The notes below the pieces were generated by a model, which had not been told where the DNA came from, searched no databases, and worked only from the letters and a program-made list of their open reading frames with translations. From NCBI GenBank assembly GCA_017459425.1, contig JAFUCZ010000034.1, positions 3,117-67,116 of the forward strand: a DNA stretch of 64,000 nt. The letters are read 5' to 3'. This DNA is from Bacilli bacterium (GTDB taxonomy: Bacteria > Bacillota_I > Bacilli_A > RF39 > UBA660). The translations under genes were made by a program, and so were the position numbers. Shown here piece by piece: positions 3,989 to 48,575 of the stretch. The first letter of the stretch is position 1. The number at the start of each line of letters is the position of its first letter.

Positions 3989-4094
3989 TTCATCTTTATG
4001 TCAAAAAGTGTTAATAATGCTTAGACATGAATATGATACGAAAATAAATAATACAATATTAAATGAAGAATATATAAAATACGAAAGTAAATAT

Positions 4095-4129
4095 TAAAAA
4101 ACTCCGTTTCATATTAAAGAAATGGAGTT
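4095..4129 (-). terminator. intrinsic terminator of the CPBP gene (hairpin usable from both strands)
   Basis: AACTCCGTTTC / GAAATGGAGTT, an 11-bp stem with one G-U pair. The A-run on plus gives a U-run on minus. Confidence 0.7.
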
Positions 4130-4134
4130 TTAAT

Positions 4135-5199: not shown

Positions 5200-5328
5200 A
5201 AAATCACCTATAAATATTTTAACACATATACAATATTTTATTAATTATTTGATATTTTGTTTACACCAAATTATGTAAAATTATTAATGTTTAGTAAAAT
5301 ATATGATATTATTTAAATAGGTGATACT

Positions 5329-23448: not shown

Positions 23449-24834
23449 ATGAAATTAACAAATAAAATAAATAAGCAAATTTTTAGAGAATACGATATTA
23501 GAGGAATATATGAGACAGATTTAAATATTGACGTAGCGTATACAATTGGTAAAAGTTTTGGAAGCTATGTACAAGAAAAATATAATGAAAAAACTGTAGT
23601 AGTAGGGTATGATAATAGATTATCTTCACCTACTTTAAATGAAGGTATTATAAATGGATTACTTAGTACTGGGGTTGAAGTAATTACTCTAGGTCTTGTT
23701 ACTACACCAATGTATTATTATGCTAGAATATTATATAATGCTCCCGCTGGTATTATGATTACAGCAAGTCATAATCCAAAAGAATTTAATGGATTTAAAA
23801 TTAGTTTTGAAAAATCAGGAAATGCATATGGAAAGTACATTCAAGATTTTTTAAATTATACATTAAATCTTAATTTTATTAATGGCAAAGGAAATATTAT
23901 AAAAAAAGATATTAAAGAAGAATATATTAAATTACTTACTACAAGTGTAGATTTAAATTTAAATAAAAAACGTGTAGTTCTAGACTGTGGTAATGGAACA
24001 GGTTCTATAATTATAAAAGATATTTTTGACAAATTAAATGTTGAATATTACCCTTTATATTGCGACAGTGATGGAAACTTTCCAAACCACCATCCTGATC
24101 CATCTGTACCAAAAAATATGATTGATTTAGGTAAAAAAGTTAAAGAATTAAATTATGATTTTGGTATTGGAATAGATGGCGATGCTGATAGAGTAGGTAT
24201 AGTAGATGAATGCGGCAATTTTATTGCAGCTGATTTATATATGTTAATAATGTATAGATATTTAAATAAATCATTAAATACACGTAAAGCATTATTTGAT
24301 GTCAAATGTTCTAAAGCTTTAATTGATGAATTAAATAAGCTTTCAATTGAACCAGTAATGTATAGAACTGGTAATTCATATACAAATATGATGATGCAAA
24401 AAGGTAATTTTGATTTCGGAGGAGAATTTTCAGGACACGTATTTTTTAGAGATAAGTTTCCGGGATTTGATGATGGAATATATGGGGGTTTAAGATTACT
24501 TGAAGTTTTAAATCATACAGATAAAAAATTATCGCAGCTCTTAGATGGAATAAATAAATACTATTCTACTGAAGAAATAAAATTTAGTGTTACAGATGAA
24601 AATAAATTTAAAATAGTAGATGAAATAATAAAATATGCAAAAGAAAAAAATTATAAATTTACTGATATTGATGGTATTAGAGTCGAATTTAATGATTCTT
24701 GGGCACTTGTTAGATGTTCTAACACTGGCCCAAATATAACAGCACGATTTGAAGCTAAAACTAAAGAAAGATTAGATGAACTACAAAACGAATTTGTAAG
24801 TCTAGTTAATAAACTTAAAGATGAAATTAGATAG
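23449..24834 (+). CDS. alpha-D-phosphohexomutase (phosphoglucomutase/phosphomannomutase family)
   Basis: Active-site TASHNPKEFNG, metal loop GIDGDADR, sugar loop GGEFSGH. Confidence 0.88.
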   Translation: MKLTNKINKQIFREYDIRGIYETDLNIDVAYTIGKSFGSYVQEKYNEKTVVVGYDNRLSSPTLNEGIINGLLSTGVEVITLGLVTTPMYYYARILYNAPAGIMITASHNPKEFNGFKISFEKSGNAYGKYIQDFLNYTLNLNFINGKGNIIKKDIKEEYIKLLTTSVDLNLNKKRVVLDCGNGTGSIIIKDIFDKLNVEYYPLYCDSDGNFPNHHPDPSVPKNMIDLGKKVKELNYDFGIGIDGDADRVGIVDECGNFIAADLYMLIMYRYLNKSLNTRKALFDVKCSKALIDELNKLSIEPVMYRTGNSYTNMMMQKGNFDFGGEFSGHVFFRDKFPGFDDGIYGGLRLLEVLNHTDKKLSQLLDGINKYYSTEEIKFSVTDENKFKIVDEIIKYAKEKNYKFTDIDGIRVEFNDSWALVRCSNTGPNITARFEAKTKERLDELQNEFVSLVNKLKDEIR

Positions 24835-25534
24835 TATTGCATGGAATGAAGAAAATTATAAAAAGTTTGTAGATTATTTATATTCATTACAAGATTTAAA
24901 TTATCGTGAATTTCATAATAAACTAAATAAAAATACATTAAATTTAATTGGTATTAGAACCCCTTTACTAAAAAATATTGCTAAAGTTATATCAAAAGGT
25001 AATTATTTAGAATTCATAAAAATCAATAAACATTCAACTTATGAAGAAATAATTATCGAAGGACTGGTTATAGGATACATTAAAAGCGATTTTAAGAGTG
25101 TTTTAGAGCTAGTTAATAACTTTATACCTTTGATTGATAATTGGGCCGTTAATGACGTTGTATGCGCTAATTTGAAGTGTTTTAAAAAATATCAAAAAGA
25201 AGGATTTGTTGATATCAAAAAATATTTATCTAGTTCTAATCCATGGAGTATTCGTTTTGGAATTGTTTTATTACTAGATCACTATATTAATGATGATTAT
25301 ATTAATGAATTAATGAAAATAATCAAAAGCATTAAAAATACAAATTACTATGTAACAATGGCTAATGCATGGCTTATATCAATTTGTTTTATAAAGTATC
25401 CTGATATTACTATAAATTTATTTATTAATAATGAACTTGATAATGAAACAAATAATAAAGCAATAAAAAAAATAAAAGAGTCTTTAAGAGTAGATAAAAA
25501 AACAAAATTATTTTTAAGTAATTACATAAAATAG
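24821..25534 (+). CDS. DNA alkylation repair (AlkD-like HEAT repeat) protein
   Basis: About 235 aa helical repeat protein with the NWAVNDVVC motif, recalled from the AlkD/DUF1061 family. Confidence 0.55.
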   Translation: MKLDSIAWNEENYKKFVDYLYSLQDLNYREFHNKLNKNTLNLIGIRTPLLKNIAKVISKGNYLEFIKINKHSTYEEIIIEGLVIGYIKSDFKSVLELVNNFIPLIDNWAVNDVVCANLKCFKKYQKEGFVDIKKYLSSSNPWSIRFGIVLLLDHYINDDYINELMKIIKSIKNTNYYVTMANAWLISICFIKYPDITINLFINNELDNETNNKAIKKIKESLRVDKKTKLFLSNYIK

Positions 25535-25552
25535 ATTTTAATCTATTTTTTT
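25529..25552 (+). terminator. intrinsic terminator
   Basis: AAATAGAT-TTTA-ATCTATTT followed by a T-run. Confidence 0.7.
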
Positions 25553-25583
25553 GTTATAATATTTTAAAAAAAGAGGTGATTTT

Positions 25584-27305
25584 ATGAAGAATAATAATTT
25601 TAAAATCATTTTCCATTATTTAAAAGATGAAAAACTTTTAATTTTTATCTATATGTTGTTAGTTGTTATAAATTATGTTCCAAGCTTACTTTCAGCATAT
25701 TTTTGGGGATTAGGTCTTGAATATCTTCTTAAAATGAATTTTAAAATGTTTTTAATTTTTTTATTAATATGGGAATCAATACACATTTTATGTTACACTG
25801 TACTAGCATATCCTAGAGATAGTATTTATAATTATTTAGAAATCAAATTTTCTAAAAATGCCTTAAAAGATTTATATCATAAAACATCTAATTTACCTGC
25901 AGTAGCTTTTGAAGAAAAAGGTGTAGGAGAATTTATAAATAGAATGACATCAGATCCAGATAGGGTAATGGATTTATTATCTAATTTAATTAGAATGATT
26001 TGTAAAAGTTTAGTTGTAATTGTTATAGTGATTATTTGTATAAAAACTTCTTTAATACTTACTCTTGAAATATTTATTTTTGGCTTAATTATGGGTTTTA
26101 TTTCTAAAAAGTTTTTCCCTAAAATTAAAAAATCACAAGAAAAAATTAAAAAGCAATCAGATATTAATGTTAAAAAAATGACTGAAAACTTAAATGGTAT
26201 TAGAGAAGTAAAAGCTCTTGGGATAAAAGAAACGCAAGAAAGACAGATGTTTTTTAATATTGATTCTTTATTTAAAGAATCTAGAATTCAGAAAAAGAAT
26301 GAACTTAAATATTATAACCTTAATAATTTAATTTATTTTTTATTAGAACTTGTAATTCTTATTACATGTGGTAGATTATATATTATTCATAAATTATCTT
26401 TTGCAATGTTTATAATGATTGATTCTTATATTTGGAAAGTTGATGATATTGTTGAATCAATTAGTGAATTTGGAGTAAATTATAATAAAGTTTCTGTTTC
26501 ACTTAAAAGAATTGATGAAATTATAAATAACAAATTATATAAAGATGAATCATTTGGTAGTAAAAACATAGAAAATATAAATGGTATAATTGAATTTAAA
26601 GATGTATATATGAAATATAAAAAAGATGAAAACAATACTTTAAATGGATTAAATTTAAAGCTTGTTCCAAATAAAAAAATCGCAATTGTAGGTAGAAGTG
26701 GGAATGGTAAAACTACAATATTTAATTTACTTTTAAGATATTTTGACGCTACTAAAGGTGAAGTATTAATAGATGGAATTAATATTAAAGATTTAAGTGA
26801 ATCATCTTTAAGAAGTAGTATTTCAATTATCAGACAAAATCCATTTTTATTTAATTTATCTATTATTGATAATTTTAAATTAGTAAAAGAAGATGTAACA
26901 ATAGAAGAAATTAAAAAAGTTTGTAAAAAAGCATATATTCATGATTATATAATGAGTTTACCAAATAAATATAATACAATAATAGGTGAGGGAGGAGTTA
27001 ATTTATCTGGTGGTCAAAAACAACGTCTTGCAATAGCTAGAACTCTTTTATTAAATACTAAAATAATTTTATTTGATGAAGCAACATCAGCACTAGATAA
27101 TGAAAGTCAGGAATATATTAAAAAAACTATTGATAATTTAGTATGTGATCATACTGTTGTTATCATAGCTCATAGACTTTCAACTATAATAGATGCAGAT
27201 ATAATAAATGTAATTGAAAACGGTACATTAGTTGAAACTGGAACTCACAAAGAATTAATAAAAGATAGTAAAATATATAAAAAATTATATAATACTGAAT
27301 TATAA
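25584..27305 (+). CDS. ABC exporter, fused permease/ATPase (MsbA/LmrA type)
   Basis: Six TM spans at the N-terminus. Walker A GRSGNGKTT, signature LSGGQKQR, Walker B ILFDEATSALD. Confidence 0.92.
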   Translation: MKNNNFKIIFHYLKDEKLLIFIYMLLVVINYVPSLLSAYFWGLGLEYLLKMNFKMFLIFLLIWESIHILCYTVLAYPRDSIYNYLEIKFSKNALKDLYHKTSNLPAVAFEEKGVGEFINRMTSDPDRVMDLLSNLIRMICKSLVVIVIVIICIKTSLILTLEIFIFGLIMGFISKKFFPKIKKSQEKIKKQSDINVKKMTENLNGIREVKALGIKETQERQMFFNIDSLFKESRIQKKNELKYYNLNNLIYFLLELVILITCGRLYIIHKLSFAMFIMIDSYIWKVDDIVESISEFGVNYNKVSVSLKRIDEIINNKLYKDESFGSKNIENINGIIEFKDVYMKYKKDENNTLNGLNLKLVPNKKIAIVGRSGNGKTTIFNLLLRYFDATKGEVLIDGINIKDLSESSLRSSISIIRQNPFLFNLSIIDNFKLVKEDVTIEEIKKVCKKAYIHDYIMSLPNKYNTIIGEGGVNLSGGQKQRLAIARTLLLNTKIILFDEATSALDNESQEYIKKTIDNLVCDHTVVIIAHRLSTIIDADIINVIENGTLVETGTHKELIKDSKIYKKLYNTEL

Positions 27306-27333
27306 AATGTGCATATACTTTATTGGTGATATT

Positions 27334-28065
27334 ATGAGCCAAACTGTATATGCATATTTTTTATCTACAATTGCAGGGATGTCTACATTAATTGGTACTG
27401 TATTAATTTTTATAAAAAAAATAAATAAAAATAAATTTATTTCTAAATGTTTATTTTTTTCAAGTGGAGTAATGCTTTATGTATCATTTTTTGATTTAAT
27501 TCCAGAATCATTTAATATATTTACTAGTATTTTTTATTTATTTCCAAGTATTATCTTATTACTTATTTTCTTAGTACTTGGTATAATTACTTCTTCTTTT
27601 ATTGAAAGAAAAGTTAATAAAAAAAATAGTTTATATAAAATTGGAATAGTTTCAATGATTGCAATAATACTTCATAATATCCCAGAGGGTATCATTACTT
27701 TTTTATCATATAATACTAGTGTTGGAACCTCATTATTAATAGCAATAGCCTTACATAATATCCCAGAAGGTATTAGTATATCAATTCCTATTTTTTACTC
27801 AACAAACTCAAAATTAAAAGCATTTTTTTATACTTTTATTTCAGGTTTATCTGAGCCGTTTGGTGCTTTAATAGCGCATATATTTTTATCTAACTTAAAT
27901 ACTAATATTATGTGTTACTTATTTGCATTTACAGCTGGTATTATGATTCAAATATCAGTTTTTGAACTAATTAAAGAAGCACATAAACTAAAAGAGAAGG
28001 GAAGTGTACTATATTTGTTTTTAGGTATATTTTTAATGTATTTAAGCCATTTAATAACAAAATAA
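27334..28065 (+). CDS. zupT: ZIP family zinc transporter
   Basis: Two HNIPEG motifs. Polytopic, about 243 aa. Start taken at ATG 27334. Confidence 0.8.
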   Translation: MSQTVYAYFLSTIAGMSTLIGTVLIFIKKINKNKFISKCLFFSSGVMLYVSFFDLIPESFNIFTSIFYLFPSIILLLIFLVLGIITSSFIERKVNKKNSLYKIGIVSMIAIILHNIPEGIITFLSYNTSVGTSLLIAIALHNIPEGISISIPIFYSTNSKLKAFFYTFISGLSEPFGALIAHIFLSNLNTNIMCYLFAFTAGIMIQISVFELIKEAHKLKEKGSVLYLFLGIFLMYLSHLITK

Positions 28066-28086
28066 GAGACTAATAGTCTCTTTTTT
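28065..28086. terminator. terminator between convergent genes
   Basis: AGAGAC-TAATA-GTCTCT followed by TTTTTT. Confidence 0.75.
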
Positions 28087-28089
28087 GGG

Positions 28090-28215
28090 TTATCTACAAT
28101 CTGTTTGTGAATTATTATTTGCCTCATTTGTTCTTTGGCAATTATCACATTTTTTAGAAGTACTATTTGTTTTATTAGTTACTTTATTTGATTGCATCTT
28201 TTTACTCTTACTCAT
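28090..28215 (-). CDS. small basic Cys-containing protein (41 aa, MSKSKKMQSNKVTNKTNSTSKKCDNCQRTNEANNNSQTDCR)
   Basis: Not in the ORF track (below its size cutoff). GGGTGAT RBS 5 nt before the ATG, and the ORF ends at the shared terminator. Confidence 0.4.
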   Translation of the reverse strand: MSKSKKMQSNKVTNKTNSTSKKCDNCQRTNEANNNSQTDCR

Positions 28216-28335
28216 TTTTATCACCCAGTAATATTATGTGAAGAAATATTTTTTATATAAATGTTATTTTTTTACAGGAGTTTGATTAATTTTAAATAAT
28301 ATTATAATTGAGGTGATTTTATTTTAGATAATATA

Positions 28336-29745
28336 TTGGATGAAATGAATGTAAAACTTGATAATTATCAAAAAGAAGTAGTATTAAATAGTTCTAAATC
28401 TATTTTAGTTGTTGCAGGTGCTGGAAGTGGTAAATCAACTACAATTTTAGCTAAAATTAAATATTTAATTAATATTAAAAACATTAAAAATAATGAAATT
28501 TTATTATTATCTTTTGGAAGAAAAAATAAAAATGAAATGAATGAAAAATTAAAAAATTTAAATATAAATATAGATGTATTTACTTTTCATGAACTAGGTT
28601 TAAAATTTTTAAAAAATGTAACTATTATAAATGATGATATGAGAAAAAAACTAATATCAGATATTATAAATAGTAGTTTAGATGATTTTAAATTTTATTT
28701 ATATTCGATATTTTATTTATTAATAAATAATACAATATTATTATTTTCTAAAAAAAGAATTAAATACATTCTTAATAACACTTTAACAAATGATACATTA
28801 GAATTTATAGATAAAATTAAACTATATGATTTAAAAGTAAATAAAAGTAAAAATTTTAAAATTTTTTATACATTATTTAAAACAATATATAGTAAATATA
28901 ATATATATTTAAATAAAAACAATTTAATAGAATTTGAAGATATTATAATTAAATCAAAAGATAAAATTAAAAGTAATTATAAATATATCATAGTTGATGA
29001 ATATCAAGATATTTCTAAAAATAGATTCATATTTTTTAAAAAATTAATTGATTATAATAATTCAAATTTTATTGGAGTAGGGGATGATTTTCAAGCAATA
29101 TATGGATTTAGTGGTTCAAATATAGAATATTTTACGAATATAGGTAATTATATACCTGATATTAAAATATTAAAATTAATTAATACATATAGAAATTCAC
29201 AAGAATTAATAAATGTTGCGGGTAAATTTATTTTAAAAAATAATAAACAAATAAATAAAAAATTAATCTCTAAAAAACATATCACTTCCCCTATTATACT
29301 TATTTGTGATAGGGGAGTAGAATTTATAAAAATACTTGAATTTTTTAATAAAAATAAAGTAAAATCGGTAGGTATATTATCTAGATTTAATTTTGGGTTG
29401 AATAAATATATAAATTTACTAAAAAAAGAAGATGATCATTACATTTATAAAAATTTAAAAATATATTTTACTACAGTACATAAATCAAAAGGACTTGAGT
29501 ATGATGAAGTTATTATTTTAAATTTAAATAATGGTACGTATGGTTTTCCATCTAAAAAGAAAAATAAAAAGATATTTTCACAATATGAAACAAATGATAT
29601 ATATGAAGAACGTAGATTATTTTATGTTGCGCTTACTAGAACTAGAAATAGAGTATATATTCTATATAATAAAAAAAATAAATCTTCATTTATAAAAGAA
29701 ATAAAAAAAGAGATAAAATATCTCAATTTTAAAAAGTTAACATAA
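28336..29745 (+). CDS. compact UvrD/Rep/PcrA-family (SF1) helicase
   Basis: Walker A GAGSGKST, motif II IIVDEYQD, TVHKSKGLEYD, YVALTRTR. It is visibly more Asn/Lys/Ile-rich than its neighbours. The start is ambiguous (TTG 28336 or ATG 28345). Confidence 0.8.
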   Translation: MDEMNVKLDNYQKEVVLNSSKSILVVAGAGSGKSTTILAKIKYLINIKNIKNNEILLLSFGRKNKNEMNEKLKNLNINIDVFTFHELGLKFLKNVTIINDDMRKKLISDIINSSLDDFKFYLYSIFYLLINNTILLFSKKRIKYILNNTLTNDTLEFIDKIKLYDLKVNKSKNFKIFYTLFKTIYSKYNIYLNKNNLIEFEDIIIKSKDKIKSNYKYIIVDEYQDISKNRFIFFKKLIDYNNSNFIGVGDDFQAIYGFSGSNIEYFTNIGNYIPDIKILKLINTYRNSQELINVAGKFILKNNKQINKKLISKKHITSPIILICDRGVEFIKILEFFNKNKVKSVGILSRFNFGLNKYINLLKKEDDHYIYKNLKIYFTTVHKSKGLEYDEVIILNLNNGTYGFPSKKKNKKIFSQYETNDIYEERRLFYVALTRTRNRVYILYNKKNKSSFIKEIKKEIKYLNFKKLT

Positions 29746-29762
29746 TATACATTATATTGAAT
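29735..29762 (-). other. dif: dif, XerC/XerD chromosome dimer resolution site
   Basis: The minus strand reads ATTCAATATAA TGTATA TTATGTTAACT. It shares 19 contiguous nt (ATAATGTATATTATGTTAA) with E. coli dif and 10/11 of the XerD arm with B. subtilis dif. Confidence 0.8.
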
Positions 29763-29793
29763 TTAATATATTTAAATATTATTTGATAAAGTG

Positions 29794-30576
29794 TTAATTT
29801 AAAACGTTTCTTGATTGAATTTCAGCAATCTTTTCTAGTACTTCTGCAGCATTCTTTTCGTTTATTTCAGTGTATCCTAATTCTTTTAACGCTTGTACTT
29901 TAGCAGAATTTAATTCTAAAGTTCTACTTAATTTTTCTTCTAATTTATGTTCTATTTGATCTACAAATCTTTTGTGTGACACAGCTAATTTAGTTTTAGA
30001 TGCTGTACCATTATTATATAATGTCATTGCTGAAAACAATATACTTTCAAATATAAATTGTTCATTTTCATCAAATGCAAACACAAGTGGTTTTGTAAAT
30101 CCAGCAGCTTTTGATACGTATCCTAGCATATATTTTAATTCTTTTGTGCTTTCTAATGCTTGGATAAAATGATGTAGATATGTAAATGTTGTATAAGCTT
30201 CTTTATCATTAGGATCTGATAATCTTTCTGAGATTAAATCAGAAATAGAGTGTAGTAACTCCCCTTCTCTCTTTCCTAATCCATTAAAAGATATTTTTAC
30301 ATCACTATTTTCTTTATTATCAGAATTATGGAATAATGCATCGATTCTTGCTTCAACATCTATTATATAATCAGTTGTAACTTTAATTTCATTAAGCTCA
30401 TCAGCTGATTTAATTCCTAATAAATTAAATAATAATACTTTCTTATCTTTAGGCCATTTATTTATATCGTCAAGTTCAAGATAGTTATATATCATTTGTC
30501 TTGACACTCCTAAAAATTTTGCTAATTTAACTTTTGATATACCAAGTTCATGTAATATTTCGTTTAGTTTTTCCAT
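29794..30576 (-). CDS. XRE-family HTH protein with a ~190-aa uncharacterised C-terminal domain
   Basis: N-terminal HELGISKVKLAKFLGVSRQMIYNYLE helix-turn-helix. GGAGG RBS. Confidence 0.75.
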   Translation of the reverse strand: MEKLNEILHELGISKVKLAKFLGVSRQMIYNYLELDDINKWPKDKKVLLFNLLGIKSADELNEIKVTTDYIIDVEARIDALFHNSDNKENSDVKISFNGLGKREGELLHSISDLISERLSDPNDKEAYTTFTYLHHFIQALESTKELKYMLGYVSKAAGFTKPLVFAFDENEQFIFESILFSAMTLYNNGTASKTKLAVSHKRFVDQIEHKLEEKLSRTLELNSAKVQALKELGYTEINEKNAAEVLEKIAEIQSRNVLN

Positions 30577-30961: not shown

Positions 30962-32071
30962 CTATAAATACCACAATTTTTTATTATTTTTTCTTACTTC
31001 TTTTATTATACCACTTCCAAGACATAAATCACCATCATAAAATACACATACTTGTCCTGGAGTAACTGATTTTATTTTTTGATCATATTTTACTAGAATT
31101 TCATTATCTAAAAATTCTAATTCAACAGGATTGTCTTTTTGCCTATATCTAAATTTTGCGTTGCATTTGTTTATTTTTTTATGATTCCAAACAATGTTAT
31201 CAACTATACAAGAAGTACTATATAAATATTCATTTTCATCATTAAGTGCGACATATAAAATATTTTTATCTAAATCTTTACCAACAACAAATGCTCTATC
31301 GCTCATACCACCTATATCAAGTCCTTTTCTTTGACCAATTGTGTAATACATAAGCCCGATGTGTTTACCAATAATTTCATTTGTATCTATATTAACTATG
31401 TTTCCTTCTTTATTAGGTAAATAGTTTTTTAAAAACTCTTTAAAATTTCTTTCACCTATAAAACAAATGCCTGTTGAATCTTTTTTATTTGCAGTAATTA
31501 GACCATTTTCTTGTGCGATTTTCCTAACAGTTGGTTTATCTAAATCTCCAAGTGGAAATAAAACATCTTTTAATTGTTCACTAGATAATTGTGATAGAAA
31601 ATAAGATTGATCTTTATTTAAATCATATGCTTTATAAAGTTTCCCATCTTTTACTTTAGCATAGTGTCCTGTTGCAATATAATCAGCGCCTAGTTTTTTA
31701 GCTTCTTTTATAAACATATCAAATTTTATATATTTGTTACACATTACATCAGGATTTGGAGTACGTCCTAGCTTTAATTCATCAAGGAAATATTTAAAAA
31801 CGTAATCCCAATATTCTTTTACAAAGTCAACTCTATGAAGTTCTATACCAATTTTTTTACAAACTTTTAATGCATCGTTATAATCTTCTTCTTGTGGGCA
31901 TATTTCGTTATTTAAATTGGGATTACCTAAATAATCATTATTTATAGAACTATCCCAATTTCGCATAAATAGGCCAATTACATCATAACCTTGGTTTTTA
32001 AGTAGAAGTGCAGCTACACTACTATCTACTCCACCTGAAATACCAACTACTACTCTTTTCACTTGAATCAC
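30962..32071 (-). CDS. mnmA: tRNA 2-thiouridine(34) synthase
   Basis: PP-loop GISGGVDSSVAA, catalytic CNKYIKF, and C..FIGERNF. Confidence 0.95.
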   Translation of the reverse strand: MIQVKRVVVGISGGVDSSVAALLLKNQGYDVIGLFMRNWDSSINNDYLGNPNLNNEICPQEEDYNDALKVCKKIGIELHRVDFVKEYWDYVFKYFLDELKLGRTPNPDVMCNKYIKFDMFIKEAKKLGADYIATGHYAKVKDGKLYKAYDLNKDQSYFLSQLSSEQLKDVLFPLGDLDKPTVRKIAQENGLITANKKDSTGICFIGERNFKEFLKNYLPNKEGNIVNIDTNEIIGKHIGLMYYTIGQRKGLDIGGMSDRAFVVGKDLDKNILYVALNDENEYLYSTSCIVDNIVWNHKKINKCNAKFRYRQKDNPVELEFLDNEILVKYDQKIKSVTPGQVCVFYDGDLCLGSGIIKEVRKNNKKLWYL

Positions 32072-32945: not shown

Positions 32946-33708
32946 TTCTAAAGAATAAAAACGATTTTTTATTAATTATATTTACTTCAACATTTTCATT
33001 ATTTATTACTTTTAATCCGTTTTCATTCATAATTTCATTTGTATAGTTAATACCATATTTTTTATTTAATTCTTTTTTTAAAGAATCAATTCTACTATAT
33101 GTAGTATGATTATCGTGATGTATATCACTTGATAAAAAACTAATTGCATGTCGTTTTAATAATTTATGAATTGTTTTTTTTGCTTCTTTACCGTATTTAC
33201 CATATAAACTACCCAAATTTGATTGAAGTAAAGCTCCTAGCTCAATCCATCTAAATGCTTTTGTATAATCTTCTTTTATTTGCATATATCTTTCAGGATG
33301 CGCGATTATAGGTGTAATACCAGCACTTTTTAATTCAAATATTAAATCTTCTATATAATTTGGAATATCATTCATTGGTAATTCAAAAAGAATATATTTT
33401 GTATCATTTATAACACTAATTTCATCGTTTTCTATTAATTTAAGCATATCAGGAGTTATCATTACTTCATTTCCCAAATATAAATTAATATTAATTTTTT
33501 TCTTTTTTATTTCTTTTTTTATTAATTCTAATTTTTTTCTTTTTAGTTTATTATTTGCATTATATGAACTTCCTTCAATATAATGTGGTGTTAATACAAT
33601 ATCAGTGACTCCGTTTATATATGCGTTATTTATTATATTAATACTTTCTTGTAATGATCTAGAGCCATCATCTATTTCATTAATAATATGTGAATGTAAA
33701 TCAACCAT
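32941..33708 (-). CDS. cpsB: PHP-family protein-tyrosine phosphatase (CpsB/Cap5C type)
   Basis: MVDLHSHIINEIDDGS, and later HPERY and DIHH metal ligands. Confidence 0.88.
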   Translation of the reverse strand: MVDLHSHIINEIDDGSRSLQESINIINNAYINGVTDIVLTPHYIEGSSYNANNKLKRKKLELIKKEIKKKKININLYLGNEVMITPDMLKLIENDEISVINDTKYILFELPMNDIPNYIEDLIFELKSAGITPIIAHPERYMQIKEDYTKAFRWIELGALLQSNLGSLYGKYGKEAKKTIHKLLKRHAISFLSSDIHHDNHTTYSRIDSLKKELNKKYGINYTNEIMNENGLKVINNENVEVNIINKKSFLFFRK

Positions 33709-33715
33709 ATTTCAC

Positions 33716-34390
33716 CTAATTAATATAATATTTATCAGAATATGTCTTAGTATTTGCCGGAATTTTATTTACAACAACACCTGCAACACTAGCTTCAACA
33801 TTTAATAATGCTTTTTTTGTATTTAATAATGCTTCAGATTCTGTTTCTTTAACAGCACATACAATAATTGTTTTATCAACTAGTTTTGACATGATTAATG
33901 CATCAGTTAAACCACTAACTGGTACACCATCATATATTATCATATCAAATTCGTTTTCTAAAATTCTCATTAATTTTTTACAAGAATCACTTGCAAGTAA
34001 TTCACTAGGATTTGGAGGTACACTTCCTCTTGGCAAAAGAAATACGTCTTCAATGTTAGTGTATACAATATAATCTTCAAAATCTTTTTCCATTCTTGAA
34101 TTGATAAGTAAATTTGATAATCCTTTACTATTATCAACTTCAAAAATTTTATGTTGGCGCCCTCTTCTTAAATCACAATCAACTATTAATGTCTTAGAGC
34201 CATTTTGAGCAAAAGCTAAAGCTAAATTAGAAGAAATAAAGCTTTTTCCTTCACCAGGCATAGAACTAGTTAATAAGATACTTTTTAATTTATCACCTGC
34301 AGCAGCAAATTGTAAATTAGTACGTAATGTTCTAATACCTTCACTGATTATTGATTTAGGCCTATTATATACAATTAAATCTTCTTTCAT
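33716..34390 (-). CDS. cpsD: BY-kinase catalytic subunit (CpsD/Cap5B type tyrosine kinase)
   Basis: Walker A SSMPGEGKS, Walker A' VDCDLRR, Walker B IIYDGVP, and a Tyr-containing tail TYSDKYYIN. Confidence 0.9.
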   Translation of the reverse strand: MKEDLIVYNRPKSIISEGIRTLRTNLQFAAAGDKLKSILLTSSMPGEGKSFISSNLALAFAQNGSKTLIVDCDLRRGRQHKIFEVDNSKGLSNLLINSRMEKDFEDYIVYTNIEDVFLLPRGSVPPNPSELLASDSCKKLMRILENEFDMIIYDGVPVSGLTDALIMSKLVDKTIIVCAVKETESEALLNTKKALLNVEASVAGVVVNKIPANTKTYSDKYYIN

Positions 34391-35106
34391 AATTTTTTTC
34401 TCCTTTTATTCTTAAGCGGAATTTGTCCAAGTATAGGAAGCTCAATCTTTTGTTCAACTTCTTCTACAGTTTTAATTGTTGTATCAAAATAATAAATAAT
34501 AAATACTATTCCAATTCCTAAAACTATACCTAAAGCTAAATATATTATTAGTTGTTTTGTTATGTTTATATTGTAAGGTTTGTTAGCTACTACTGCAGTA
34601 TCAACTATACTAATGTTTTCGATTTTATACATTTCTTGAATCTCACTACCAAATACAACAGCAGTTTCATCAGCTATTTTTTTAGCAGTTTCGGGTTTTT
34701 CACTAGATACAGTAATTTTAATTAATTCGGTATCTTGAATTGACGTAACACTTATATTTTTACTTAAACTTTCATAAGATATTTTTAAACCTAGATTAGA
34801 TATAACTTGATTTATAACTCTTCTACTTTTTACTATTTCTCTATATGTAGACACTAATTTTTGGTTTAATGTAATATCATTTTGAGTGATAGTACCTGAT
34901 TCACTATCAGATCTAGTTAATACAATAGTTGTAGAACTATTGTATAAAGGTTTTTGTAAAAATAAAGTATACGAACATCCTATTATAGCAACGATTAAAG
35001 ATATCAAAATAATAATTACTGATTTTGATATAAAGTAATTAAATAATTCTTTTAAATTAATTTCTTCCACAATTTCATCCCTTCTATTCAATCGCTTCAA
35101 ACACAC
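34387..35106 (-). CDS. cpsC: Wzz/CpsC-type chain-length determinant and kinase activator
   Basis: Two TM spans flank a ~150-aa loop, and the basic C-terminal tail is KNKRRKKL. 4-nt overlap with cpsD. The true start may be the internal GTG near 35070. Confidence 0.8.
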   Translation of the reverse strand: MCLKRLNRRDEIVEEINLKELFNYFISKSVIIILISLIVAIIGCSYTLFLQKPLYNSSTTIVLTRSDSESGTITQNDITLNQKLVSTYREIVKSRRVINQVISNLGLKISYESLSKNISVTSIQDTELIKITVSSEKPETAKKIADETAVVFGSEIQEMYKIENISIVDTAVVANKPYNINITKQLIIYLALGIVLGIGIVFIIYYFDTTIKTVEEVEQKIELPILGQIPLKNKRRKKL

Positions 35107-35164
35107 ATTATTTTAACATATTTTACTAATTTCTTCAATATAATAAAAAAAATTAATTAAATAA

Positions 35165-35308
35165 TTATTCAATTTTTTCTTTACTATTAAAACATTCTAT
35201 ATTATCATCTATAGTTTTTTCTATAAATTCATCACTTATACTAGATATTTTTAACATACACCACAAAATAAATAATATTAATATTAAAAAAAGTACTAGA
35301 TAAATCAT
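35165..35308 (-). CDS. small membrane-anchored protein (47 aa)
   Basis: AGAGGTG RBS before the ATG. MIYLVLFLILILFILWCML is followed by an acidic tail. Below the ORF track cutoff. Confidence 0.35.
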   Translation of the reverse strand: MIYLVLFLILILFILWCMLKISSISDEFIEKTIDDNIECFNSKEKIE

Positions 35309-35343
35309 ACAACACCTCTAGTACTAGTATATACAATGTATTA

Positions 35344-35781
35344 TTAATTATTTATTTTTTTTAAATATAATAATACTCCTAATGTCCCACCTAACGTATC
35401 AATAATAACATCTAAAAATTTTGATGTTCTACCTGTAAATGATTGATGAAACTCATCACCACATGCATATAAAAATATAAATCCAATTATAATATAAATT
35501 ATTTTTACATTATTATTATATATTGCATACATTAATAATATACCAAGTATCAAATATTCTAATACATGTGCACATTTACGAATTGGATAATTTAAATTAG
35601 TTACAATTTTATCTATTTTTTTATCGCTTAAATTTAAATTTAGAACATTATTTGTAATATTAACAGCACCTTTTATTATTCCTTTACTTTTTCCATTTGA
35701 ATTATTAGCATTCATAGAAGAAAATAAAAATATAATTATTAGCCATAATATTAATAAAATGTATACTAATTTATTTTTCAT
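35344..35781 (-). CDS. VanZ-like family membrane protein
   Basis: RKCAHVLEYLILG and DEFHQSF...D..D..G motifs. Start trimmed to ATG 35781. Confidence 0.75.
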   Translation of the reverse strand: MKNKLVYILLILWLIIIFLFSSMNANNSNGKSKGIIKGAVNITNNVLNLNLSDKKIDKIVTNLNYPIRKCAHVLEYLILGILLMYAIYNNNVKIIYIIIGFIFLYACGDEFHQSFTGRTSKFLDVIIDTLGGTLGVLLYLKKINN

Positions 35782-35859
35782 CAAATCACATCCATATCTA
35801 ACATAATACACGTATATTAAAAAATTATCAAGTAAAAAGACAAGTTTAAACTTGTCCAA

Positions 35860-37032
35860 TTAATCTCTTGCAAATAAATCTCTTGTATATACTTTTTGTT
35901 TGAATTCCTCTAAATTTTCATCAAGTCTATTAGCAACAATTACATTACTAATTTCAGTAAATAATTTCAAATCATGAACTACTTCTAAACCATTAAATGC
36001 ATTTTCTTTAATTGTTGGTTCATATATTATAATATTTACACCTTTAGCTCTTAATTTTTCTATTACTCCTTGAATAGCACTTGCTCTGAAATTATCTGAT
36101 CCAGATTTCATTGTAAGTCTATAAATACCTACTGTTTTTGGTTTTTTTGATAATATTTCATCAGCAATATGTTGTTTTCTTGTATCGTTAGATTTAACAA
36201 TTGCTTCAATCATATTTTGAGGTACATCTTTATAATTTGCAAGCAATTGTTTTGTATCTTTTGGTAAACAATATCCACCATATCCAAACGATGGATTATT
36301 ATAATGGGTTCCAATTCTTGGATCTAAACATACACCATCAATTATATCTTTAGTATTTAATCCTTTCATTTCAGCATAAGTATCAAGTTCATTAAAATAA
36401 GAGACTCTTAAAGCTAAATAAGTATTTGCAAATAATTTTACTGCTTCTGCTTCTGTTGGATTCATATATTTTATAACAACATCATCTTTCAAACATGATT
36501 CTTTTAATAAATTTGCGAATTCTTCAGCTCTTTTTGATTTTTCTCCTACTATAATTCTAGATGGATATAAATTATCATATAAAGCTTGTCCTTCTCTTAA
36601 AAATTCAGGGCTAAACATAATATTATCAATATTATATTTTTTCTTCATATTTTCAATAAAACCAACTGGAATTGTAGATTTTACTACCATTGTAGTAAAA
36701 TTAGGATCACATATTTCTTTTACCTTTACAATTATATCTTCTACCATTGATGTATCAAAGAAATTATTCTCGTCATCATAATTAGTAGGTGTACTTATAA
36801 TTACAAATCTAGCGTCTTTAAACGCTTCCTTATAATCTAGTGTTGCTTTTAAATTTAATTTTTTTTCATTAAAATATTTTTCAATATAATTATCTTGTAT
36901 AGGTGATACCCTATCATTAATTTTATTAACTTTTTCCTCTATTACATCTAAGGCTACAACCTCATTTTTAACACTAAGTAATGTGGCTAGAGATAAACCT
37001 ACATAACCAGTTCCTGCTACTGCTATTTTCAT
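35860..37032 (-). CDS. ugd: UDP-glucose 6-dehydrogenase
   Basis: NAD fold AGTGYVGLS and catalytic GGYCLPKD. Confidence 0.93.
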
Positions 37033-37063
37033 AAATAACTCTCCTTCAAAATAAACGAAACAT

Positions 37064-37092
37064 ATAATACTATAAAATTATAAGAATGTCAA
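37064..37092 (-). promoter_or_regulatory. internal sigma-A type promoter ahead of ugd
   Basis: On the minus strand: TTGACA, 17 nt spacer, TATTAT. It lies in the only sizeable gap of the locus. Confidence 0.5.
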
Positions 37093-37124
37093 TGTGTATA
37101 TAAAACGATTGTTTATTGACAATT

Positions 37125-37787
37125 CTATTTTTTTGTCAAAAAGTCAACATAATCAAAAAAATATTGAAATCCATACAATCCAGATATTTTTTTAAAATTA
37201 TATCTTTTTATTTGCTTTTCTCCTATTTCATACCCATCTTTCAACTTATTGTTATGAGTTACAAATATTATTTTCTTTTTTGAATTAAATTCTTCAATTT
37301 TTTTTATTATTTTCTCATCAATACTATTCCCATGCTCATCTTTATTATCCATTATTACATATATTTTATCTTTGATAATTCTTTTTTTTCTTTTTTCCCA
37401 ATTGTTAATTACAGTATCTTGATTATCGTCATGTATAAAATTAATATCAATTCTTTTTAGTTTTGGACTTTCAAGTGTTAATATTGGGTGTCCTTTTTTC
37501 ATACTCAAAACTTTTGGTTTTATTTTTAAATATTCGTCCAAATTCAAACAAAAATCAATAAAATCAACTCTTTTCATCGATGAATTAATTAATGGTGAAT
37601 TAAATTTTAAACCAAGCAAATTATATATTTCACCACCTATACAATTTGGAGATAATATTGTAATATTATCATCGCCATTGAGTTCTTTGTACTTTTTTCT
37701 TGCTTTATTTTTTGATTTTTGTAATCTATATTTAGGAATACCAAAATTTAGGAAATTTGCTTTAAACTGCTTTAATTTTTCTTTCAT
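37125..37787 (-). CDS. DUF1919 family EPS-locus protein
   Basis: ITILSPNCIGGEIYNLLGLKFNSPLIN matches the DUF1919 N-terminal signature as I recall it. Confidence 0.6.
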   Translation of the reverse strand: MKEKLKQFKANFLNFGIPKYRLQKSKNKARKKYKELNGDDNITILSPNCIGGEIYNLLGLKFNSPLINSSMKRVDFIDFCLNLDEYLKIKPKVLSMKKGHPILTLESPKLKRIDINFIHDDNQDTVINNWEKRKKRIIKDKIYVIMDNKDEHGNSIDEKIIKKIEEFNSKKKIIFVTHNNKLKDGYEIGEKQIKRYNFKKISGLYGFQYFFDYVDFLTKK

Positions 37788-39297
37788 GTCTGTGTCTCCT
37801 TTTTAATGCGTTTTTAATTTTATTTCTGGTTTCATAAAAATCATTTTTGTAAAAAACAATTTCAAAAACTAACACAATTATAACTGCAAAAGAAGCAGTC
37901 GTGAATGATTTTAAAATCCATTCAAAAATGCTGTTAGCAATATTTAACTTAAATATTATTCCTATTCCGCTTATGGCTGATATTTCAAAAAAAGAAATAA
38001 GTATTCTTTTATAAACAAAAACCATACTACGTTTAATCAAATTTTTTGACATGTATGCTGCATATTGAAATGTCCTAAAAACAGTTGCAGAAAGCGTACC
38101 AATTGCAACCCCAACTAATCCTAAAAAATTGACAAGTACTACTGATAGTACAATATTTAACATTGCTTCAAAAAATGAACCATTTCTTGTTTTTTTAAAA
38201 TGTCCTACTGCTTCCACTATTGACTGATATGGAATTCTATAACATCCAAATAAAGTTGCAATAATTAAAATAATGGCAAAATCTGGTCTAATATAGTTTG
38301 CGTCATTAATGTTGTGAGTGTATATATTGACAAACGATAAAATCATAACAATGGTAGTGCCAAAAAATATATTACTTAAAGAAAAAGTAACTTGCTCAAA
38401 CACAAATAAATTTTTGTATATTAATTTTTCTTCATTTTTTGCAAACATATTACCAAATGCCGCACCTACACCATTAACAAATGTGAGCAGAATTTTTCTG
38501 ATACCATTTGTAACCATATAATATACTGTATATACTGATACTTCGAAAACATTTGTAAAAATTGTTAATACAAACATATCTGTATTTGAATTAACAAAAT
38601 TTGCTACCTGTAATCCAAAACAATCCCATCTTTCAGCAAGAGCATCTTTGTTTGGTTTAACTGTTTTGTCAATTTTATATTTTTTTCTAGCATACCAATT
38701 AATGATAATTGGGTTGAGTGAAAATACAATGGTGCTTCCTAATTTAACAATATGTATATTTGAACCAATTTTGATAAGAATAAATGCTACTAATGTATTT
38801 AAAATAGTAGAAAATATTTGTACATACGAAATTACACATTGCCTCTGATCAGCATTTAATAACAATTGATATGTTAAGCCAAAGTAGTATTGTGAAAAAG
38901 TGCTGATTCCAAGTATAATTACAAGAGAGAAAGAAAACCAATAATCAAAATTTTTAATTATAAAAAATGGATAAATTAGCGCTAACGCAATTAAAGAAAA
39001 CAAAAAAATTATTGCAACTTTTTTTAAAAACTGTTCTGTTGCATTAACAACTGCACTTATTTTTTCTGTATTTCCTTCTGCTAAAGGCTTATACAAAGCA
39101 GCTCTTGTTACACCACCAATTCCAGCACGCATCAATGCTACATAACCTAAAAACTGCGTAATAGAAGATGTGACACCATTGTAATCAGATCCAAAAGCAG
39201 ATAAAATTAATCTTGGTAATATAAATCCACAAATGACAGCAACAAATTCATATAATAGTCCTGCAATTGTATTATATAATGCTTTCTTGCTTCTCAT
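37762..39297 (-). CDS. wzx: Wzx-type polysaccharide flippase (MOP superfamily)
   Basis: 511 aa with about 14 TM spans, and an N-terminus KKALYNTIAGLLYEFV... typical of the polysaccharide biosynthesis protein family. Confidence 0.8.
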   Translation of the reverse strand: MRSKKALYNTIAGLLYEFVAVICGFILPRLILSAFGSDYNGVTSSITQFLGYVALMRAGIGGVTRAALYKPLAEGNTEKISAVVNATEQFLKKVAIIFLFSLIALALIYPFFIIKNFDYWFSFSLVIILGISTFSQYYFGLTYQLLLNADQRQCVISYVQIFSTILNTLVAFILIKIGSNIHIVKLGSTIVFSLNPIIINWYARKKYKIDKTVKPNKDALAERWDCFGLQVANFVNSNTDMFVLTIFTNVFEVSVYTVYYMVTNGIRKILLTFVNGVGAAFGNMFAKNEEKLIYKNLFVFEQVTFSLSNIFFGTTIVMILSFVNIYTHNINDANYIRPDFAIILIIATLFGCYRIPYQSIVEAVGHFKKTRNGSFFEAMLNIVLSVVLVNFLGLVGVAIGTLSATVFRTFQYAAYMSKNLIKRSMVFVYKRILISFFEISAISGIGIIFKLNIANSIFEWILKSFTTASFAVIIVLVFEIVFYKNDFYETRNKIKNALKRRHRHERKIKAV

Positions 39298-39307
39298 ATA
39301 ACAACTC

Positions 39308-40159
39308 CTATTCCCAAATTTTAGGTTCCAATCTACATTTTTTTCTAAATAATTTATGTATTTTTTTTATTTTATTTATTAAATTAATAGTTTGCTTGTA
39401 AGAACCTTTTTTTTCGTTTAACATCCAATTTTTAGTTTTTTTTGAAAAATGGACTCCATTCGATTTTCCAAAACCAAATCGCCTTGCAAATTCCATAATA
39501 TATTTGTTTGACTCACAAAAAACAGTACCAAAATTAGGTGCACTCATGTCCTGTACTTTTTTACATAATTCTATTCGCTCTTTTATTTTTTCTTTAGACT
39601 CATAATTCGACATCTTATCAAATTCAAATAAAGCTCCAATTATAATACATTTTTTATTTTGGAATATTGAATTTCTATAACTAAATTGGCATTCTTCCTT
39701 TTTTAATGAATGTATTTCACCATTTTCGATATAATCAACTTTAATAATGTAGTCACTTATTACTTTGTTATGCTTTTTTCCTCTTCCAGCATTCATATAT
39801 ATTGCACCACCAATTAAACCTGGGACAGAAAATAAATATTCAATTCCACCACAATTATGTTTATTTATTTCTTTAATAGCTTGCTGTAATCTAACTGATG
39901 CTCCAATATAAAATTTATTCTCATCAATTTTCTTAATTTCATTATTAAAATCTCTTAAACAAATAGCTTCTTTAAATGTTTTAGAATCATTTATAATTAA
40001 ATTTGAGCCCCCACCTATTAAATAATTTAATGTATTAGGTTTATCAATAGATATTTTAAATAATTCTTCAATATTCTCAGGAAAGTAAAGTTTTTCTACA
40101 ATTCCCCCCATTTTAAAAGTAGTATATTTAGCTAAATTTTCATTTTTTAATACTTTCAT
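39308..40159 (-). CDS. MurB-like UDP-N-acetylenolpyruvoylglucosamine reductase paralogue
   Basis: LAKYTTFKMGG, GGGSNL, PGLIGGAIYMNAG and FSYRNSIF align to MurB. The position of the catalytic Ser motif (GS.F) reads FGTVF. Confidence 0.75.
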   Translation of the reverse strand: MKVLKNENLAKYTTFKMGGIVEKLYFPENIEELFKISIDKPNTLNYLIGGGSNLIINDSKTFKEAICLRDFNNEIKKIDENKFYIGASVRLQQAIKEINKHNCGGIEYLFSVPGLIGGAIYMNAGRGKKHNKVISDYIIKVDYIENGEIHSLKKEECQFSYRNSIFQNKKCIIIGALFEFDKMSNYESKEKIKERIELCKKVQDMSAPNFGTVFCESNKYIMEFARRFGFGKSNGVHFSKKTKNWMLNEKKGSYKQTINLINKIKKIHKLFRKKCRLEPKIWE

Positions 40160-41181
40160 TTTTTTACACTCCTTATTGCGTCACATAAATAATTTTTAGA
40201 ATGATCAATGTTATTGTTAATCTTATTATTTATTTTACTATAATCTATGATTTCATTAAATTTGTCCATTATGTTTTCGTTAGTAATATCTCTATTTCCC
40301 AAATTAAAAGAATCGAGTAACTCAACAATTTTATTTTTTCCTTTTGAATAAGTAATAAATTGTTTTCTATAATTTATTGCATATGCTGTCCCATGAAATG
40401 TATTTGTTATTACGTATTTAGCGTTTTTATATTCATAAAATGGCATTCCATTAATTGAATGAATACATTTGTCACACCAACTTATATATTGCCCTAATGA
40501 GACAAGCTTCATATTTTTACTGTGTGCAAAAGAAATAATATCGTTTATTTCTTGCTGTGTCAACGAGCCATAAAATAAATATACCGCGATAAAATTTTGT
40601 GTTTCAGAAGATACACTCATTGAATTTAGAAATGTTGGATCAACTACTACATCTATCGATTTATTACAATATGTCGATAAAGTTTTTTTTGAATATTCGT
40701 CACGTACACTTATACAATCAAATTTTTTTAGCAATTCAACATATTTACTATTTAAAAATAATTCACTTTTTGTTGTATTAATTGATGGAGCATACGAAAT
40801 TTTTGGGCAATCAAAACCATCAGCCCAGAATTCATCTTTTTGGCACTCTAAACGTGAAATATTCCATATTTCGTCGCTTCCAACAACAACACAATCAAAT
40901 CCTTTTCTTGAGCATGTTGATGGTAATGATTCCCATGCTTTTTTTAAAATGAAGTACTCTTTTAATTCGAAAAAGGTTCCTTTAATTATTTTAATAATTG
41001 ATTTGTTTGTAATTATATTTTTTTTTATTTTTCTAGCACACGCTCTAAATAGTTTTCTGGATTTGCCATTGTAAAATACTGCATCATATCCTTGATTTAA
41101 AATATAATTATATAAATTTTTGGCTTGTAAAAAACTTCCAAAATTATAACTGTTATAAACTGTTACTATACATATTTTCAC
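40156..41181 (-). CDS. polysaccharide pyruvyl transferase family protein (copy 2)
   Basis: MKICIVTVYNSYNFGSFLQAKNLY N-terminus and GSDEIWN motif. 4-nt overlap with the MurB-like gene. Confidence 0.75.
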   Translation of the reverse strand: MKICIVTVYNSYNFGSFLQAKNLYNYILNQGYDAVFYNGKSRKLFRACARKIKKNIITNKSIIKIIKGTFFELKEYFILKKAWESLPSTCSRKGFDCVVVGSDEIWNISRLECQKDEFWADGFDCPKISYAPSINTTKSELFLNSKYVELLKKFDCISVRDEYSKKTLSTYCNKSIDVVVDPTFLNSMSVSSETQNFIAVYLFYGSLTQQEINDIISFAHSKNMKLVSLGQYISWCDKCIHSINGMPFYEYKNAKYVITNTFHGTAYAINYRKQFITYSKGKNKIVELLDSFNLGNRDITNENIMDKFNEIIDYSKINNKINNNIDHSKNYLCDAIRSVKK

Positions 41182-42389
41182 TGCGTATCTATCTCCTTGT
41201 TTTCACTATTTTGATGGCTAATCAGTGCAATAGTAAGAATATTTAAAATGCTAAGCCTACTAACGTAATATGTCACTTGCCAATACTCTAAAATTAACAT
41301 ACAGATATTTAAAATTAGAAATGATTTTAAAATTATTAAATCTTCATTTTTGTTTGTTTTATTTATACATTTTAACAGCATAACAATTATATATACATAT
41401 TTACTATAATATATTATATAACCAATAATTCCACAACTATATAGTAGTTCCCAAATGTTACTATGAGAGTATAATCCATTACCATATAATTTCTTAAAAG
41501 TTGAAAGTCCATTACCTAAGAATGGCTCCTCTTTAAATTTAATTTTGGCGGTATTTTTTAAATTGTTTCGAATTGCTTCCGAATTATCTACAACATAATT
41601 TGAATTTAATCCGTTTATTGATCTCTCAATTCTAACTCCTAAAACATTATAAAACAATGGAATTTTAAACATTAAAACTCCGATACATAAAATAACAAAA
41701 ATATATTTAAATATATGTAAAACCTTGGCATAATTTTTTGTATTCATAATTGGAACTAGAAAAGAAATAACAGCACATGGTAAAATAATTTTTCTGGTTC
41801 CTGAAAGAATTACCACTGTAAAAAATATTATTGAAGATAATAAATAAGTTTTTTTCTTTTTTAAAATAAACAATATCCATGCAATGCAAAAAGCAACCCC
41901 TGCAATATATCCAAATGTTGTTCCAACACCACTAAATTTTAATCCAAAAATTGATAAATCAACATTAGAAAAACTTAATCTAAATAATGAATTTTTAAAA
42001 AAACGAATATAAATAAAAATTAAAACTAACATTGAAAAAGTTACAGGATATACATATTTTTTTAAAATATCTTCTAAATTTTTTGATGTGACAAAGAAAT
42101 TGTATATAATAATCTGTGTTACAAACTTGACGCAAAGCGTTATCACCATTTTTATAGATTCATTAGGAAGCTTTGAGAATAAAAACGAATGTAAAGCAGC
42201 AAATATAATAAAAGTCAATTCAAAGTAAAAGAATTTATTCCATTTGAAACTGTAATTATTAAATAATGAAATTAGAATAAACAATAAAAACGTCGAAAAA
42301 ATTTCAAGCGTTTGATTATTCAAACATGTATTAATAAAAAAGTAAATAATAAAAGCTATATACATAATTTTTTCAGTTTTTATTTTCAT
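41178..42389 (-). CDS. wzy: O-antigen polymerase/ligase-like (Wzy) membrane protein
   Basis: About 11 TM spans and a large loop. Its position in a Wzx/Wzy locus supports the call. Confidence 0.65.
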   Translation of the reverse strand: MKIKTEKIMYIAFIIYFFINTCLNNQTLEIFSTFLLFILISLFNNYSFKWNKFFYFELTFIIFAALHSFLFSKLPNESIKMVITLCVKFVTQIIIYNFFVTSKNLEDILKKYVYPVTFSMLVLIFIYIRFFKNSLFRLSFSNVDLSIFGLKFSGVGTTFGYIAGVAFCIAWILFILKKKKTYLLSSIIFFTVVILSGTRKIILPCAVISFLVPIMNTKNYAKVLHIFKYIFVILCIGVLMFKIPLFYNVLGVRIERSINGLNSNYVVDNSEAIRNNLKNTAKIKFKEEPFLGNGLSTFKKLYGNGLYSHSNIWELLYSCGIIGYIIYYSKYVYIIVMLLKCINKTNKNEDLIILKSFLILNICMLILEYWQVTYYVSRLSILNILTIALISHQNSENKEIDTQ

Positions 42390-42403
42390 ACTTTCACCCC
42401 TTA

Positions 42404-43531: not shown

Positions 43532-43535
43532 AAAT

Positions 43536-45847: not shown

Positions 45848-45861
45848 ATTTTGCCTCCACT

Positions 45862-46638: not shown

Positions 46639-46652
46639 CTTTAAATCACCTA

Positions 46653-47699: not shown

Positions 47700-47709
47700 A
47701 TAATCACAC

Positions 47710-48378: not shown

Positions 48379-48575
48379 TATAATTCTCCCCTTTAAATTA
48401 CTTTATTTAAGCATCAATAAAATAATTATACCATATAATAGCACATTTTTGATAAATTTCAAGTTTTTTTTTACAAAAAAAATAATATTTGAATTGAAAA
48501 ATATACGGATTTTACATATAAATACTTAAAAGTATATTATATAGACTATATTTAACTTTACACAAACATCTAAAA

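Follow-up and report, generated by a model that had tools for sequence, protein, structure and literature searches.

A probable chromosomal dif site with an altered outer XerC half-arm at the replication terminus of an uncultured low-GC gut bacterium of the Bacilli

A dif site is defined as a 28-bp sequence in which two 11-bp arms with partial dyad symmetry surround a 6-bp central region (PMC5357621). In the E. coli/B. subtilis paradigm, sister chromosomes would become joined into a dimer whenever the number of crossovers is odd; tyrosine recombinases of the Xer type would bind the 11-bp arms of two dif copies, the strands would be exchanged across the 6-bp central region (TGTATA in the site described here), and two monomers would be restored, the reaction being activated at the septum, normally by a translocase of the FtsK/SpoIIIE type. 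The systems with which the present locus can be compared include the Firmicutes XerCD (CodV/RipX) system, represented by the dif of B. subtilis, ACTTCCTAGAATATATATTATGTAAACT, and the dif predicted for E. faecalis, ACTTTGTATAATGTATATTATGTTAACT (PMC3025954), as well as that of E. coli, with the dif sequence GGTGCGCATAATGTATATTATGTTAAAT. In most Bacilli xerD adjoins scpAB (PMC8136486), and a xer gene linked to its site has otherwise been described for XerS/difSL, a module with a single recombinase (PMC5357621); in the XerH/difH system, too, the recombinase gene is found near its site at the terminus. Yet another group is formed by the attachment sites of Xer-integrated mobile elements (IMEX), such as CTXphi, VGJphi, TLCphi and the gonococcal genetic island, with variable cargo beside dif.

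The site described here, ATTCAATATAATGTATATTATGTTAACT, lies on the minus strand of a 64-kb window (the whole stretch of DNA that was analysed), exactly where the original prediction had placed it, and is very probably the chromosomal dif, at the terminus of replication, of a gut bacterium of the Bacilli that is uncultured and low in GC, with Clostridium sp. CAG:710 and CAG:417 and Candidatus Faecisoma among its relatives (Table 1). Its architecture of 11 + 6 + 11 bp, with the inner dyad ATAAT/ATTAT, is the one found in the Firmicutes sites, and it resembles them also in its location at a skew shift, in the presence of XerD, and in its positions 7-28, which are identical (22/22) to the dif predicted for E. 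faecalis V583 by Kono et al. 2011 (PMC3025954, supplementary file 2); over the full length 24 of the 28 positions agree with that prediction, with a run of 22. It differs from these sites, which have ACTTCC or ACTTTG in the outer XerC half-arm, by having ATTCAA there. With E. coli dif it shares the TGTATA hexamer, 10 of the 11 positions of the XerD arm, and the inner XerC arm, in contrast to the outer XerC arm, which is unrelated. Additionally, the site is identical at 25 of 28 positions to the dif predicted for Haemophilus somnus, and its XerD arm matches that of B. anthracis at all 11 positions. The XerD arm, the central region and the inner XerC arm agree with the phylum consensus, and the element is of an ordinary, well-known kind, with one unusual half-site.

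Table 1. Features of the 64-kb window around the dif site, in order of position
Feature	Position	Strand	Basis or remark
xerD, tyrosine recombinase, 297 aa	22546-23439	+	TIGR02225, Phage_integrase and SAM-like N domain; 6.3 kb from dif
Cargo genes (phosphoglucomutase-like, DNA-alkylation-repair-like, ABC transporter, ZupT)	23449-28065	+	between xerD and dif
Spacer between ZupT and helicase genes	28066-28335		
Accessory UvrD/helicase IV-like helicase, 469 aa	28336-29745	+	domain and family matches; ~12-19% GC
Skew and gene-orientation switch, terminus polarity	29500-30000		cumulative GC-skew maximum, AT skew, ORF strands
Hairpin GAGAUA-UUU-UAUCUC followed by U7	29703-29724	-	fold of -6 kcal/mol, z = -3.1; inside the 3' end of the helicase gene
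dif site (probable)	29735-29762	-	sequence reading, core and clade matrices, simulations, conservation in sister species
XerD arm, TTATGTTAACT	29745-29735	-	part of dif site
Central hexamer, TGTATA	29751-29746	-	part of dif site
XerC arm, ATTCAATATAA	29762-29752	-	part of dif site
HTH260, conserved uncharacterised HTH protein, 260 aa	29794-30576	-	weak HTH matches; 3' end faces the XerC arm
ORF of 119 aa	30595-30954	-	between mnmA and HTH260
mnmA	30962-32071	-	syntenic anchor for orthologous termini; 1.2 kb from site
Capsule/exopolysaccharide cluster	~33700-48400	-	

The label "near-canonical", given to the site by the original prediction, was based on its identity to two model sites, 21/28 to E. 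coli dif with 19 consecutive matches and 21/28 to B. subtilis dif with 10 of 11 in the XerD arm. Both figures were reproduced exactly; the label stands by virtue of positions 7-28, identical to the E. faecalis prediction, and is not carried by the quoted figures. In first-order Markov simulations of the 24% GC window at least 21/28 identity to E. coli dif was reached in 10 of 200 simulated windows and to B. subtilis dif in 41 of 200, and an identity of 21/28 by itself is weak evidence, not significant in DNA of 24% GC (5-20% of the simulated windows), in contrast to the 24/28 identity to E. faecalis dif, reached in none of 200 simulations. A full-length Firmicutes matrix, built from the 45 distinct dif predictions of Kono et al. 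2011 (PMC3025954), gave the site only 12 bits, because the outer XerC arm ATTCAA departs from ACTTCC; simulated windows had maxima of 6.9 ± 3.2, the highest being 17, so that this score was within reach of chance, and the matrix was dropped as a test in favour of matrices for the core and for the clade. With the clade matrix, built from the sites of relatives, the full site scores 22 bits and the core 31 bits, a score attained in none of 300 simulated windows, and the next best match in the window does not exceed 8.5 bits. The significance of the site resides in positions 7-28.

The commonness of 21/28 matches in 24% GC sequence and the placement of the site between convergent genes would suit a chance AT-rich palindrome, or a terminator, with no role in recombination. 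Such an origin is highly improbable. As RNA, the site folds no better than shuffled sequences do (-2.7 kcal/mol, z = -0.9), and a hairpin distinct from it, with a U-tract, adjoins it. The XerD arm, asymmetric and with G/C in it, does not vary from species to species, and the clade-matrix score was not met in any of the 300 simulations; by the conservation of the XerD arm, the skew, the simulations and the folding, the terminator or chance palindrome is effectively refuted.

The position of the site coincides with a switch in strand asymmetry. All 2-kb bins up to position 30000 have a positive GC skew, all those between 30001 and 64000 a negative one, and the cumulative GC skew of the window peaks in the interval given in Table 1; AT skew is mostly positive to the left of the site and mostly negative to the right, and most ORFs to the left use the plus strand, most of those to the right the minus strand. 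For all three measures, GC skew, AT skew and gene orientation, the switch is no more than about 300 bp away from the site. In Firmicutes the leading strand is rich in G and A, and a flip of this polarity, with genes converging, marks a terminus and not an origin. The claim that the window holds the replication terminus is thus supported by the flips of skew and orientation within its 64 kb and by the presence of dif in relatives at the orthologous position, where the terminus is located likewise. Motifs of the KOPS/SRS type invert their polarity at the site, no more than base composition alone predicts: GAAGAAG occurs 24 times toward the site and 6 times away from it in the window, and 348 versus 91 times when pooled with relatives, and GAGAAGGG occurs 16 versus 0 times in the pooled set, both within the expectation from base composition. 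The search for oriented k-mers covered the window and 883 kb pooled from relatives, and its top k-mers resemble codon and composition effects. A crude motif search of the 64-kb window did not find the FtsK Walker motif.

The 28-mer occurs once in the window, with up to three mismatches allowed, and in one copy in each of seven contigs of the same species; a scan of JGI metagenomes returned a single exact match, in the same genomic context. The HTH protein beside the site was found with identical sequence on metagenome contigs only, one of the metagenome contigs being 99.98% identical to the window over 20.8 kb. With the MnmA protein as a query, 80 species-representative genomes were retrieved (71-81% identity), all of them from uncultured Bacilli of gut or rumen, of the same type as Clostridium sp. 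CAG:710/CAG:417/CAG:1193, Candidatus Faecisoma and Onthousia, a group which we take to be the order RF39. In 52 of the 80 species the homologue of the HTH gene is closely followed, on its downstream side, by a dif of the form ACTTCC-TATAA-TnnATA-TTATGTTAACT, the sites having been chosen by a consensus-based score, which makes the invariance of their sequence partly circular and leaves their coincidence with the skew maxima independent. The distance from dif to the local maximum of cumulative skew has a median of 508 bp and is at most 700 bp in 39 of the 52. In most of the 28 loci without a site the skew maximum is at or near the end of the stretch examined, and the terminus therefore falls outside it. 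In the four closest relatives in GTDB the 28-mer, ACTTCCGATAATTGATATTATGTTGCCT, is identical and forms the sole conserved island in otherwise unalignable intergenic DNA, and the complete genome of a relative, OW818670.1 (1.49 Mb), shows the same arrangement.

The gene order around the terminus of the clade is spoIIM-mnmA-(orf)-HTH260, dif, from zero to five cargo genes, and xerD, from which rarA diverges. The end of HTH260 is at most 1.6 kb from dif in 45 of 49 loci, sometimes only 4-10 nt, and xerD is found on the other side of dif, beside rarA, at a distance of 0.5-6.7 kb in 33 of the 49. In 15 of the 52 species dif points the other way with respect to its neighbours. Most variable among the relatives is the interval between dif and xerD, which, depending on the species, contains genes for ZupT, ferritin, a DNA-alkylation-repair-like protein, phosphoglucomutase or an ABC transporter, and here also the helicase. 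The mnmA-HTH260-dif-xerD arrangement provides a marker for termini in the metagenome-assembled genomes of the clade, and in the window, which comes from a gut bacterium that is uncultured and has a small genome, the site fixes the terminus and orients the two replichores. It is also worth mentioning that the 119-aa ORF between mnmA and HTH260 gave no tblastn match in related loci and no family match; it appears to be species-specific.

The original prediction had also pointed to a gene for a Xer-family recombinase about 6 kb away, and this gene is indeed present, at the distance given in Table 1. Its product scores 339.8 bits with the XerD model TIGR02225, above the cut-off of 329.6, and 315 bits with the XerC model TIGR02224, below the cut-off of 335.15; on these scores it is named XerD, by a margin over XerC that is not wide. 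In the translation the catalytic residues Arg, Lys, His-x-x-Arg, His and Tyr are recognisable. Of the designation of the site as XerCD, the part that stands is XerD, the nearby gene passing the cut-off of that model; the XerC part fares less well, as the outer XerC half-arm departs from the clade consensus. No second Xer-like gene was found in the 64-kb window or in the 44 loci of relatives with a XerD-like match, in a scan of about 20 kb per genome, and a literature search for RF39 together with XerD returned no paper.

The arrangement recalls XerS/difSL and XerH/difH in that the recombinase gene is near its site at the terminus, and differs from most Bacilli, with xerD beside scpAB (PMC8136486), in that xerD is linked to dif. 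It is conceivable, though unlikely, that a single XerD-like protein acts on both arms, as XerS and XerH do, with no XerC involved. The linkage of a xer gene with dif at 0.5-6.7 kb in the 33 of 49 relatives is a hallmark of XerS/difSL (PMC5357621), the scores of the protein with the XerD and XerC models are nearly equal (340 and 315 bits), a second Xer gene is absent from the window and from the relatives' loci, and RipX, the XerD of B. subtilis, is able to bind both half-sites (PMC5357621). This is to be set against the fact that the relatives keep the asymmetric ACTTCC arm typical of Firmicutes dif bound by XerC (CodV), for the conservation of which there would be no reason without XerC; moreover, the coverage was about 20 kb per genome, and xerC is normally not near dif. 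In contrast to the single-recombinase modules, the site is a classical 28-bp dif and not a 31-bp difSL or a difH, the gene and the site are separated by kilobases and not immediately adjacent, and the protein fits the XerD model far better than that of XerS (127 bits). The same linkage could be read, with equally little confidence, as a compact terminus module of HTH260, dif, variable cargo and xerD, in which either a XerD-like enzyme works without a classical XerC or HTH260 is a new DNA-binding factor of dif or of the terminus; were this true, a left arm that no canonical XerC reads would explain why ATTCAA is tolerated there.

On the preferred reading, that of a chromosomal dif of the XerCD type, the arm TTATGTTAACT and the inner ATAA/TTAT dyad probably represent conserved protein contacts, and the left (XerC-type) arm keeps its inner half only. 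This arm might be bound by a co-adapted XerC, by a XerC that binds weakly with cooperativity from XerD, or by XerD itself; by analogy with RipX, the binding of both half-sites could be one way for the altered arm to be tolerated. The bases at positions 2, 4, 5 and 6 of the site are present in 17%, 0%, 6% and 0%, respectively, of the sites of the 52 relatives, and the half-arm ATTCAA replaces the ACTTCC of the clade. A sister species (contigs L088 and L093), with HTH260 79% identical and DNA 79-83% identical, has the identical 28-mer, ATTCAA included. The 31-nt spacer between the HTH260 stop codon and dif has diverged between the window and the sister species, and the 28-mer is unchanged; about 12 of the 31 spacer positions differ by manual count, which under neutrality leaves a ~5% chance of six unchanged bases in the outer arm, and this may be taken as weak evidence of a constraint on that arm.

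The low-GC helicase gene abuts dif only in the species of the window and in the sister species; in L093 its frame stays open across the whole site, and in the window it stops inside the XerD arm. The overlap of 11 nt that had been claimed between this gene and the site was borne out: the final 11 nt of the gene (29735-29745), including the stop codon, which corresponds to the CATAA of the arm, lie in the XerD arm. In the next relative (contigs L094 and L095, 74%) the half-arm is ACTTCC, positions 7-28 are identical, the spacer is 430 bp long, and there is no helicase. As the helicase and ATTCAA occur together in the two species and neither occurs in L094/L095, the altered arm, the shortened spacer and the acquisition of the helicase belong to one branch. 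The preferred guess is a rearrangement one end of which fell within the outer arm; an arm swap mediated by Xer is a poor fit, since it is the conserved HTH260 side that the altered arm faces, and a second dif-like site is absent.

The helicase gene (~12-19% GC versus 24% for the window) looks like a recently acquired accessory gene. In phage and plasmid collections no close homologue was found, distant partial matches being the only ones; a more distant homologue (39% identity) is present elsewhere in the locus of one relative, L072. The low GC content of the gene and its end inside the XerD arm would also fit a hybrid attachment site left by an IMEX, with the helicase as cargo and one arm derived from the element, which we regard as quite unlikely. 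In its favour, too, the helicase abuts dif in the two species with ATTCAA alone, L094/L095 having ACTTCC and no helicase; the concentration of four changes within 6 bp, with none in the other 22 bp, resembles a replacement and not drift, and in one relative, L091, inovirus-like genes end inside the same arm. Yet the geometry is wrong for such an origin: the site on the chromosomal flank should keep the chromosomal arm, and here the altered arm faces HTH260, with the helicase on the opposite side. Nor was a second dif-like site found between xerD and dif, including, on reading, the spacer between the ZupT and helicase genes; two direct dif-like sites, as in an IMEX, are not present in the window. 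The helicase is, moreover, without a close relative in phages or plasmids, and the window, in contrast to IMEX attachment sites, has no phage genes and no flanking second site. Even as an IMEX hybrid, the site would still be a working dif.

The IMG/VR contig L091 (IMGVR_UViG_3300012082_000046, 1-6004), from a relative, shares with the known IMEX a filamentous-phage-like element at dif. It starts with a homologue of HTH260 (60% identity), after which there is a dif-like site, TATTCATATAATGTATATTATGTTAACT, at 1199-1226; a gene for a rolling-circle Rep protein (PF23343, 51 bits; phrog_3419) directly abuts this dif and has its stop codon in the XerD arm, and past Rep there are a weak match to a Zot-like ATPase and ORFs for small membrane proteins. 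By its gene content L091 looks like a filamentous prophage integrated at dif by the IMEX route, the contig ending inside the element so that one junction is visible, and the phage genes abutting dif provide an indirect hint that the dif of the clade may be used in vivo as a Xer substrate. Scans of viral collections with HTH260 and with the Rep of L091 returned L091 alone. Two unrelated "viral" contigs of IMG/VR, L089 and L090, with 50% and 41% GC, carry the 22-nt core of dif in identical form, TATAATGTATATTATGTTAACT; these contigs could be further elements that exploit Xer, or host fragments.

The stop codon of HTH260 is 31 nt from dif. This protein has 5397 homologues, belongs to no Pfam or NCBIfam family, having only weak HTH matches, and gave no sequence match in the PDB. 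Its AlphaFold model is mediocre (pLDDT 71, pTM 0.33), and Foldseek retrieved with it only XRE-type HTH domains, in the N-terminal part, all with E > 0.1. The proximity of HTH260 to dif could reflect plain synteny with mnmA, or HTH260 could be a DNA-binding protein associated with the terminus. The hairpin followed by a U-tract within the 3' end of the helicase gene is, from its predicted fold, probably the terminator of the mnmA-HTH260 transcript; it was not reported in a scan for consensus terminators, because it has too few G-C pairs. As this terminator would lie beyond dif, the mnmA-HTH260 transcript would cross the site.

The altered XerC half-arm and the linkage of xerD to dif are small departures from the textbook system, and three modest points deserve the notice of a specialist: that the XerC half-arm has been rebuilt, that the order HTH260-dif-xerD is conserved, and that the stretch from dif to xerD varies. 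The terminus accounts for the variable neighbourhood, with the capsule locus, transporters and the helicase, as well as a phage in one relative. The capsule/exopolysaccharide cluster by the terminus differs in gene content between two contigs of the same species, L001 and L002, and in the sister species (L093), and by this comparison it appears to be a strain-variable locus.
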